From: Candidatus Brocadiia bacterium
GTDB lineage: Bacteria > Planctomycetota > Brocadiia > SM23-32
Assembly (NCBI GenBank): GCA_046538485.1
Contig: JBKHIT010000001.1
Span: 128,001-192,000 of the forward strand
Direction: 5' to 3'
DNA length: 64,000 nucleotides
Of the stretch, positions 1-2,504 are shown piece after piece. The position numbers were made by a program, and so were the translations under genes. Position 1 is the stretch's first letter. Every line of letters begins with the position of its first letter. Under the pieces are notes generated by a model. The model saw nothing but the letters and a program-made list of their open reading frames with translations, was not told the origin of the DNA and ran no database searches.

Positions 1-384
1 TGCTCCAGTAAACTGTCCACACATACCGCCTCCTTTTACACCGCCGGCCGAGTGGTTGCTCTCTCCCATTTTCTTCACCACTCGCATCGGACTTCTCCTA
101 TCGAACGGAGGATCGTCTCAACCGGATCACCTGACTCTGTCAGCAACCGCCGTCAGGCTACCTTTACGATGCCTACGGATGTTCGTTTTCCTACGGTCTA
201 TGCGTTTGCCTGGCCGCTCGGACTGACTTTGAGTCCCCGCCCCAAATGGAACGGTTTCCCGTCTGGCGACTTTGTCACTGCGCGTCGGGGTCTCCCCCGG
301 CAGTCAGACTACGTGTCCGAAATGAGAAATTGACACGACTGGGACTCTCGCCCAGCCAGCTTACCCAGCCTTACCTGGGCACAC
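1..384 (-). mobile_element. Group II intron, 5' end (domain I); the rest, including any RT ORF, lies beyond the left window edge
   Basis: The minus strand starts GTGTGCCCAG at 384 (GUGYG 5' consensus). It contains segments typical of group IIB domain I (GGCGAGAGTCCC; AACGAACATCCGTAGGC; GGCGGTGTAAAAGGAGGCGGTATGTGTGGACAG). A hairpin loop GTTCGAT (106-100) and CGTAAA (168-163) are complementary to the upstream exon. Confidence 0.85.
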
Positions 385-457
385 ATTCAATGAGCGTAAA
401 CCCCGTTCGGCAATAAGAGGTAATCCGTTTATTTTTCCGTCGCGTTCTGATAACCAA
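385..457 (-). CDS. 5' exon of an intron-interrupted prepilin-type N-terminal cleavage/methylation protein
   Basis: A TTG start at 457 downstream of AGGAG/GGTAGG reads (M)VIRTRRKNKRITSYCRTGFTLIE plus one T, then the intron begins. This is a basic leader with the G|FTLIE motif, in tandem with two intact paralogues. Confidence 0.85.
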
Positions 458-1541: not shown

Positions 1542-2504
1542 TCATTTTGCCGGTTCTCCGTATTGGCGGCACCAGCCGACGAAATTATCCCAGTGGCTGA
1601 CACCCGTGGAACCGTATGCACTACCGTTGGCCAGGATGTGGTAACTTCTATTTGGATCCTGAATCCATCCTGGTTCGGCAACTTCGCCGTAACTGATCCA
1701 GCGCGCCGATCCATCGTAGAATACGGCATTCGATCCCTCTCCCCCGTGGCTCATCGCGCGCCATTGATCAGCATACACCGTTTCCTGGGCGCAGGTGATC
1801 AGAACCGGCGAAACGCCTGTTCCCGGATCGTTTTTGTTCCGCCAGTTTTCCACGATGTAACGGAGCCGCGTATTCTCTCTCCCAACCCAGTAAGCGGGAG
1901 CGTCGGGGCTATACTGCCAGAACTGGTGGGCGACACCGAGGTAGTATCGATACGAACATATCCCACCCTCCACGTCATAATCATACTCGCCGTTCAGGTC
2001 TGGCCATGTCTTTCTACTGCCCCAGAACGTGTGACGGGGATCATTGAGACTCCACTGCGTGCCGCTCATGCCGTCTGGTTTTCGCCACGCGGGGCAAAAA
2101 AGCAGATCCGCGGATTGAAAATATCCCATCCGGACGAATGTGCCCCAGGCCACGATCAATCCGTTCGACCCATTGGCCTTGTGCGTGCGGACGGCCTGGT
2201 GCCATTCCGTAGTTCCCGTGCTGAAATTCGTTGTGTGGGCCGTATAGATCGATTCCTTGATACTCGCAGTCGTTGCCCAGGGCAAACGCTCATCATTGTC
2301 GTTGGCGAACATCATCACCTGTATCCCGTTCTGTCGTCTATCACTCAAACACGCCGCCCGCGTGGCGGCATCCCGGGCTTGTTCCAACGCCGGCATTAAC
2401 ATCGCGGCCAGAATTGCTATAATGGCGATTACAACCAGCAGTTCGATAAGTGTAAAGGCCTGCCCAAATCGACGATTCACTTTCTCTTTTCGAGCGACCA
2501 ACAT
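1542..2504 (-). CDS. Prepilin-type N-terminal cleavage/methylation protein (DUF1559-like)
   Basis: [53 protein letters not shown]. Confidence 0.9.

Follow-up and report, generated by a model that had tools for sequence, protein, structure and literature searches.

A prepilin-type gene at one edge of the window (the whole stretch of DNA analysed here, 64,000 nucleotides from a Candidatus Brocadiia bacterium, G000:C44:128001-192000, where G000 is the genome carrying the window) is interrupted within its motif by a group II intron. A preliminary description of the letters had claimed that EBS1 of this intron matches the codon degeneracy of Ile-Glu-Leu through G-U wobble, that EBS2 matches Phe-Thr, and that the guide is tuned to a protein motif rather than to one DNA sequence, which would let it home into synonymously diverged paralogues. 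The question raised by this locus is whether a short RNA guide can follow a peptide motif through the synonymous spellings of a gene family, and whether its fit to the degenerate positions was selected or is incidental.

The intron, its host gene and the EBS1 loop

Judged by its sequence, the segment at 384-1 (minus strand) belongs to a mobile bacterial group II intron. It is the domain I part, the first 384 nt of a 2,067-nt element, and the remaining intron nucleotides lie outside the window at G000:C44:126318-128000. As in mobile group II introns, the element has a GUGYG 5' end (GTGTG at 384-380, minus) and a 3' end placed after a domain VI with a bulged A. Directly before GTGTG, the exon reads GGG TTT ACG CTC ATT GAA T (403-385, minus), and the 3' end, ...UAAUAGUAC at C44:126318, is followed by TG CTG GTG GTC ATT, by which the Leu codon is completed. 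The insertion point (between 385 and 384, minus) falls between the first and the second base of the Leu codon in the motif G-F-T-L-I-E-L of the prepilin-type gene, and exon joining restores the reading frame. No joint skipping the intron was seen at this locus in the contigs of four DNA sequencing runs.

The domain IV Open Reading Frame (ORF) encodes a group II reverse transcriptase (RT)-maturase of 424 aa, the intron-encoded protein (IEP), with a TIGR04416 score of 415 bits (cutoff 300) and matches to RVT_1 (1.6e-41) and GIIM (3.7e-11); no endonuclease domain was found among its domain profile matches. Its closest solved RTs come from IIC introns (7uim, 4e-61; 6ar1, 9e-58). Checking domain I with group II covariance models, as the preliminary description had proposed, gave a divided answer: the group-II-D1D4-4 core (RF02003) does match at 357-186 (minus; 35.9 bits, E 2.3e-6), yet under its gathering score of 49. 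Domains V-VI match RF00029 with 33.6 bits (E 4.7e-4), also below the gathering score (40), and the end of this match coincides with the deduced 3' splice site. The window contains no Rfam match at gathering level.

Several other elements were noted in the same genome. A sub-threshold Rfam match to the Acido-Lenti-1 small RNA (30.2 bits against 37, E 3.6e-4) is located outside the window, downstream of the interrupted gene, at L011:214-278 (minus), which corresponds to C44:125214-125278. Other group II RT genes are found at C99:8594-9769, C120:7485-8456, C113:35705-36511 and C97:165576-165830; they are 34-46% identical to the IEP, and thus represent further, unrelated intron families in G000. 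A shared internal deletion, in which intron position 323 is joined to 1631 so that the RT domain is gone and the maturase part is kept, occurs in L002:1501-2215 (G000 C20:82316-83030) and in L003:53-546 (G000 C120); in the C120 copy, the 5' end is missing as well.

The 5' exon of the interrupted gene (457-385, minus) encodes a leader ending in G, followed by FTLIE. Its probable start is the TTG at 457-455, the first start codon after an in-frame TGA (502-500). Beyond the intron and outside the window, the 3' exon continues for 202 further codons and by itself gives only a weak DUF1559 match (16.6 against 23.3); across the intron, the split gene reads TG-FTLIE and then the 3' exon. Two uninterrupted paralogues with the same motif, each an empty target site, lie beside it at 516-1394 and 1542-2504 (both minus). 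Both are above the cutoffs for TIGR02532 and PF07963, and for TIGR04294 (H-X9-DG) the paralogue at 516-1394 passes (21.9 against 19) and the one at 1542-2504 is just under (17.9). By these sequence profiles and the motif, the interrupted gene and its two neighbours encode prepilin-type GFxxxE proteins.

EBS1 is presented by a hairpin at 112-96 (minus), in which a stem of TCCT (112-109) and AGGA (99-96) closes a 9-nt loop (108-100) consisting of CC (108-107) and GTTCGAT (106-100), above a lower stem of 3 bp at about 117-115/93-91 (minus). The heptamer 5'-GUUCGAU-3' (106-100, minus) pairs 7/7 with the final seven exon bases, IBS1 ATT GAA T (391-385, minus), which comprise the Ile and Glu codons and the first base of Leu. 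In the window copy, the pairs at exon positions -5 and -1 are G-U; G of EBS1 faces -1 and -5, and U faces -2. The letters and coordinates of the hairpin, of GTTCGAT, of CGTAAA and of the exon end in the preliminary description were all correct, and its pairings (7/7 with two G-U for EBS1, 6/6 for CGUAAA) were reproduced. The leader of the 5' exon also contains a stretch at 404-412 (minus), CCGAACGG at about exon -26 to -19, that is complementary to CCGUUCG of the EBS1 loop; it consists of two overlapping 6/6 matches, is present in the window copy only, and is probably due to chance.

By themselves, the pairing counts of the EBS1 and EBS2 candidates are within chance. For EBS1, the 7/7 site is unique within the first 640 intron nucleotides, and one or more sites of this kind appear in 21.5% of 2,000 mononucleotide shuffles. 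The placement was examined in seven distinct domain I sequences (the window copy, C20a, G024, L012, L089, L091 and L092; mean per-column identity 86%). RNAalifold placed GUUCGAU in the 9-nt loop, with compensatory changes at columns 90/106 and 92/104 of the 4-bp stem and at 86/111 of the lower stem; at each of these pairs, two sequences are altered on both sides and the pair is retained. GTTCGAT is invariant in all seven sequences, and the two loop bases before it are variable.

A covariance model of the EBS1 region was used to align distant introns, with IEPs 42-43% identical. In L016, AACCGAA occupies the same loop positions and pairs 6/7 with the exon end ATCGGTT, and in two Cardinium copies (L014 and L015) GAUGUAC stands in the same loop register and pairs 6/7 with the exon GTTCATC. 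A third Cardinium copy (L046), whose exon end has changed, fits its own exon at only 2/7 positions. Inspected by eye, L013 fits at 6/7 positions when shifted by one base. Clean boundaries could not be set for several relatives, among them L019, in which GUGYG is absent and only a shifted EBS1 fit was obtained, L017, whose loop is absent in the alignment, and L078, with only five exon bases. Since different letters appear in the same loop register and each matches its own exon, the sequence comparison identifies the GUUCGAU loop as EBS1. In the comparison among homologous introns that the preliminary description had suggested, its assignment of the hairpin loop is borne out by the covarying stem, the invariant heptamer and the register shared with distant relatives.

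Insertion sites and synonymous spellings

Fourteen junctions of the intron lineage were found. The exon end can be read at 13 of them, and at each of these the intron follows the FTLIE codons and one further base. Eight are in G000, where every one follows GFTLIE or AFTLIE plus one base and the leaders are unrelated. Six of these eight constitute family B, in which the first 42-51 intron nucleotides are identical and the identity to the window copy is about 80%. Most family-B junctions stop at contig ends, as a collapsed repeat would, and five other contig ends of G000 carry one shared intron 3' end followed by five different 3' exons. Several near-identical copies at different sites point indirectly to splicing and retrohoming activity. 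Of the six further junctions, one is in a related genome (G024), one in a 2.9-kb contig of the genome collection and four are in metagenome contigs; a single junction among the six shows four exon bases only and is left out of the 13.

The exon end is ATCGAAC at 6 of the 13 junctions and ATTGAGC at 2, while ATTGAGT, ATTGAAC, ATCGAGC, ATTGAAT and ATCGAGT occur once each. Seven of the eight ATY-GAR-Y spellings are therefore occupied and ATA is absent (0 of 13), and all 13 exon ends pair 7/7 with EBS1 through 0-3 wobble pairs, as expected from the earlier claim that EBS1 can pair with any ATY-GAR-Y. The insertions thus stand in many diverged paralogues and in many spellings, with one unchanged EBS1, which agrees with the proposed homing into synonymously diverged paralogues.

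Three of the 13 junctions (L010, which is the G024 fossil, L091 and L092) are in intron-borne copies of the motif and not in host genes. In L091 and L092, the second intron is inserted exactly at the 3' junction of the first copy, and the FTLIE plus C of the first copy's domain VI serves as the 5' "exon". The G024 fossil has a 5' flank (L010:1209-1274) with homology to the intron-borne leader of L091. The head-to-tail introns occupy about 1-731 and then 732-1528 in L091 (minus), and about 118-1658 and then 1659-2292 in L092 (minus).

A search for the intron by DNA and pattern in 61 relatives, 32 genomes of the order and 132 of the class, many of them incomplete and with repeats that often fail to assemble, found it only in G000 and G024, and a pattern scan of metagenomes gave four contigs only. 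Relatives of the IEP at 56% identity or less occupy other targets.

In G000, there are 128 FTLIEL-coding sites, of which 5 are intron 3' ends and about 124 are uninterrupted, while 31 genomes of the same order contain 0-28 motif sites, most of them fewer than 10 (against 129 in G000). The genome in which the intron is multi-copy is thus the one with by far the largest target family. The empty sites comprise 87 ATY and 36 ATA (123 in total), and ATC-GAA-C is the commonest ATY spelling (23 of 87). GUUCGAU reaches all 87 empty ATY sites, whereas a guide complementary to ATT-GAG-T would reach 5.

Whether this reach was selected is a separate matter. GUUCGAU is the plain Watson-Crick complement of ATC-GAA-C, which by itself places G, U and G opposite the three synonymous positions; about one randomly chosen site in four would have given rise to a guide with G/U/G. 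The reasoning of the preliminary description needs one correction here: any guide that pairs with GAA must place U against its last A, so that only the two G's opposite T are informative on degeneracy. The word "tuned", in the sense of selected for degeneracy, is therefore unsupported, GUUCGAU being simply complementary to the commonest spelling.

The wobble fit may accordingly be incidental: EBS1 would record an ancestral home site, ATC-GAA-C, without selection for motif breadth, and the copies at wobble sites, including the window copy with its two G-U pairs, would be tolerated accidents or poorly splicing dead ends. We regard this explanation as possible, at rather less than an even chance. 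It fits the position of ATC-GAA-C as the modal ATY spelling and the exon end at nearly half of the junctions, and the window copy has lost the coding capacity of its domain VI (see below), which fits decay. In RmInt1, mobility dropped by a factor of about 100 when one EBS2 A-T pair was changed to G-T, and none of the pairs recovered at EBS3 was a wobble (accessible text of PMC4075523); within that scope, wobble is not generally neutral. The wobble load at the sites of G000 points in the other direction, with a mean of 1.125 wobble pairs at occupied sites (n=8) against 1.09 at available ATY sites (n=87; computed by hand), and this equality argues for tolerance, although n is only 8. Moreover, the near-identical, and thus recent, family-B copies are at sites with 0, 0, 0, 1, 2 and 3 wobble pairs, and EBS1 has not adapted to its exon in the diverged C44 copy. 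From the above, the reach of the guide over synonymous spellings is supported by the natural insertion spectrum.

ATA codons, which cannot pair with EBS1, are found at 0 of 8 occupied and 36 of 123 empty sites in G000, a difference that is not significant (Fisher p = 0.11). As a separate observation, ATA makes up 29% of the empty motif sites of G000. Its share is 15.5% among the Ile codons of long ORFs, 11.5% within the 16 codons that follow the motif in these genes and 12% (17 of 137) at the motif in the 31 related genomes (Fisher p = 0.001 for the excess at the motif in G000 over these genomes). The idea that ATA is an "immune" spelling is a lead only, as the rare A/T-ending codons ACT and TTA are also about twofold enriched at the motif; the codon usage of the relatives may be a further confounder, and ATA could stem from intron-borne heads.

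The EBS2 candidate, the putative IBS3 and domain VI

The EBS2 candidate, 5'-CGUAAA-3' (168-163, minus), is in a junction strand above the helix GCAUCG/CGAUGC. In the window copy, it pairs 6/6 and by Watson-Crick pairs only with the IBS2 candidate TTT ACG (400-395, minus), the Phe and Thr codons, which is separated from IBS1 by the Leu codon CTC (394-392, minus). In the seven copies compared, the pairing is 6/6 in the window copy and L012, 5/6 in L089 and C20a, and 4/6 in L091, L092 and G024. CGUAAA itself is kept in five of the seven; C20a and G024 carry CGCAGGAGG instead, for which pairing counts and inspection by eye gave no convincing exon partner. The claim that EBS2 matches Phe-Thr is thus right for the window copy and does not extend to the lineage. 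The position is homologous to the EBS2 of relatives, where by eye exon-complementary stretches stand at the aligned place (UUACA/UGUGA in L016, UACAUA/UAUGUA in L014), and on this sequence evidence the placement is plausible. An alternative register, AAGGUAA/UUACUUU, was rejected, as it fits only ACT-TTR sites and fails for the window copy.

CGUAAA faces the wobble base of TTY with A and the fourfold-degenerate base of ACN with C, so that it is not degeneracy-tolerant.

It is also conceivable that CGUAAA is not EBS2 at all, that its 6/6 match arose by chance, and that targeting relies on EBS1 (and EBS3 or protein) alone. Between the exon hexamers at -25 to -8 and domain I, there are five 6/6 Watson-Crick matches where 1.85 would be expected, and 75% of shuffles contain one or more; the weaker pairing in five of the seven copies, the two CGCAGGAGG variants and the consensus fold, in which the CG of CGUAAA is drawn paired within the intron, tend the same way, as does the kinship of the IEP with RTs of IIC introns, which the accessible text of PMC4075523 describes as having a short EBS1 and no EBS2. 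We nevertheless consider it unlikely, given the conservation of CGUAAA in five sequences and the two distant relatives with exon complementarity in the same junction strand. At what would be the IBS3 position, the first base of the 3' exon, the letter is always T.

At the other end of the intron, the 3' strand of domain VI in most relatives encodes (G/R/E)-F-T-L-I-E plus C in frame with the 3' exon, and this coding stretch is preceded by ATG and a basic leader, in four variants also by GGAGG. In family B, the last 38 intron nucleotides read ATG CGC CTC TGG CGG AGA GGC TTC ACT CTA ATA GAA C; these domain VI ends are in the first 53 nt of G000 contigs C99, C140 and C143 and the last 50 nt of C118 and C138. 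A domain VI loop of 160-200 nt is present in L012 (identical in L090), L091A, L092A and the decayed C20a, with GGAGG 7-9 nt before ATG, a basic leader and F-T-L-I-E plus C. Domain VI of the other variants is located at L012:2205-2381, at L002:2245-2424, and in L091 and L092 (minus).

The Phe, Thr, Leu and Ile codons of this head show only synonymous differences among variants, with compensating changes across the helix: its lower part occurs as UCU/AGA, UCG/CGA and ACU/AGU, and the Phe codon has a C-G pair at its third base, replaced by U-A in C20a. For Leu, every variant uses CTA or TTA, which are rarer in the genome than all other Leu codons, and this codon forms the UAAU branch-site bulge. 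In the window copy (L011:1318-1374, which is C44:126318-126374, minus, just outside the window), the helix is kept and the coding is lost, as the strand reads G-F-L-L-I-V and has no ATG. A consensus scan of the domain VI loop found no sigma-70-type promoter; the loop does contain TTGACT/TTGCCA and TATAAT hexamers, but their spacing is 13-14 nt, and this candidate was rejected. The same scan found a 12/12 promoter upstream of the 5' exon of L012.

Read in this way, domain VI appears to be dual-coding: it would act as a ribozyme helix and also supply a Shine-Dalgarno sequence, a start codon, a basic leader and a second F-T-L-I-E, and an invaded prepilin gene could yield the same mature protein without splicing. 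That the lineage is co-adapted to the protein motif at both ends, through a generalist EBS1 and a dual-role domain VI, is a tentative proposal to which we would give nearly, but not quite, an even chance.

A related pattern is seen in seven G000 genes, which contain a 66-nt in-frame insert exactly at the intron site, ending in a second G/A-FTLIE. Four are on contig C73 (36642; 27843, minus; 32097; 39111, minus), and the others are at C23:74625 (minus), C64:17237 and C19:4132. The inserts contain an 8-bp hairpin, GCGUGAAG/CUUCACGC. The upstream motif has decayed in four of the seven genes (TFPLGE, GSTLVE, VFSLLE and GVTLTE), and the downstream motif is intact in all seven. In a related genome, G005 (L096-L100), a different 66-nt unit is found in tandem at the same place. 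The inserts may have been left behind by the intron as scars, or may stem from another type of head duplication, and their sequences fit the replacement-head role.

Spread by duplication or gene conversion of an intron-bearing gene, in place of repeated RNA-guided insertion, is very improbable: long identical stretches flank the site on both sides in paralogues and could seed conversion, and the 66-nt inserts do recur at the same site in several genes, but identical intron ends adjoin 5' flanks whose sequences are unrelated as far as the motif, introns have entered the 3' junction of another copy (L091, L092), and the lineage occupies the motif also in another genus and in metagenome contigs.

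Proposed mechanism and comparison with known systems

We think it probable, with good confidence, that this is a retromobile intron lineage specialised on the DNA encoding the prepilin motif F-T-L-I-E-L, which reaches its synonymous spellings by wobble. The RT-maturase of the lineage lacks an endonuclease domain, and the site would be found by RNA base pairing. EBS1 GUUCGAU, in its hairpin loop, would pair with ATY-GAR-Y, a weaker EBS2 would pair with TTY-ACN, and the invariant T of the Leu codon, the first base of the 3' exon, would serve as IBS3. Through rG-dT and rU-dG wobble, one guide could pair 7/7 with all eight ATY-GAR-Y spellings and exclude ATA, and these wobble pairs would have to be functionally tolerated in both reverse splicing and splicing.

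The target of RmInt1 is a multi-copy insertion sequence. This intron (Sinorhizobium meliloti, group IIB-like) resembles ours in being guided by RNA, through EBS1, EBS2 and EBS3 in RmInt1 (accessible text of PMC4075523) and here through EBS1 with a candidate EBS2 and a putative EBS3. Both also have an IEP without endonuclease domain and a target present in many copies per genome. RmInt1 differs in that its target is a near-identical insertion sequence, while here synonymously diverged paralogues share a six-residue motif. The lineage is closest to RmInt1 in lifestyle and closest to IIC RTs in RT sequence.

Group IIC and attC-associated introns also recognise a recurring motif and not one locus, and, among solved RTs, those of IIC introns are the nearest to our IEP; they insert after terminator or attC hairpins. 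The window intron differs in its GUGUG start, its 7-bp EBS1 and its insertion inside a reading frame. Membership in group IIC was rejected on the in-codon insertion and the 7-bp EBS1, the closest solved RTs being the sole IIC-like feature.

In targetrons (Ll.LtrB, EcI5), a few EBS letters set the target range and some mispairs are tolerated. Those are engineered one-site guides, whereas here a natural guide covers a codon-degenerate set; pairing percentages for EcI5 are given in the accessible text of PMC4075523.

The head in domain VI has its nearest analogy elsewhere. Phages and islands inserted in tRNA genes carry a spare end of the target gene, so that the gene stays whole, and in bringing a copy of the displaced gene segment they may be likened to the intron described here; they differ as integrase-driven DNA elements. 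Full-text literature searches returned no group II intron that sits in a pilin or prepilin motif or whose domain VI is coding.

The usual view is that bacterial group II introns persist by staying out of genes or by homing to single sites. In mechanism, the present one is an ordinary EBS-guided group II intron without endonuclease domain. What is new is its target, a peptide motif of a very large paralogous family of which one guide reaches nearly all synonymous spellings; a conserved protein motif, repeated over a gene family with more than 120 members, serves the lineage as its landing pad. At defined positions of EBS1, the insertions display a natural range of tolerated rG-dT and rU-dG pairs, and they offer a testable case of a short RNA guide that tracks a peptide motif through synonymous drift, which would be useful for the design of broad-range targetrons. 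The coding domain VI, new as well if the replacement head is true, would be a new way for a retroelement to cut the cost to its host and to remodel the 5' ends of genes.
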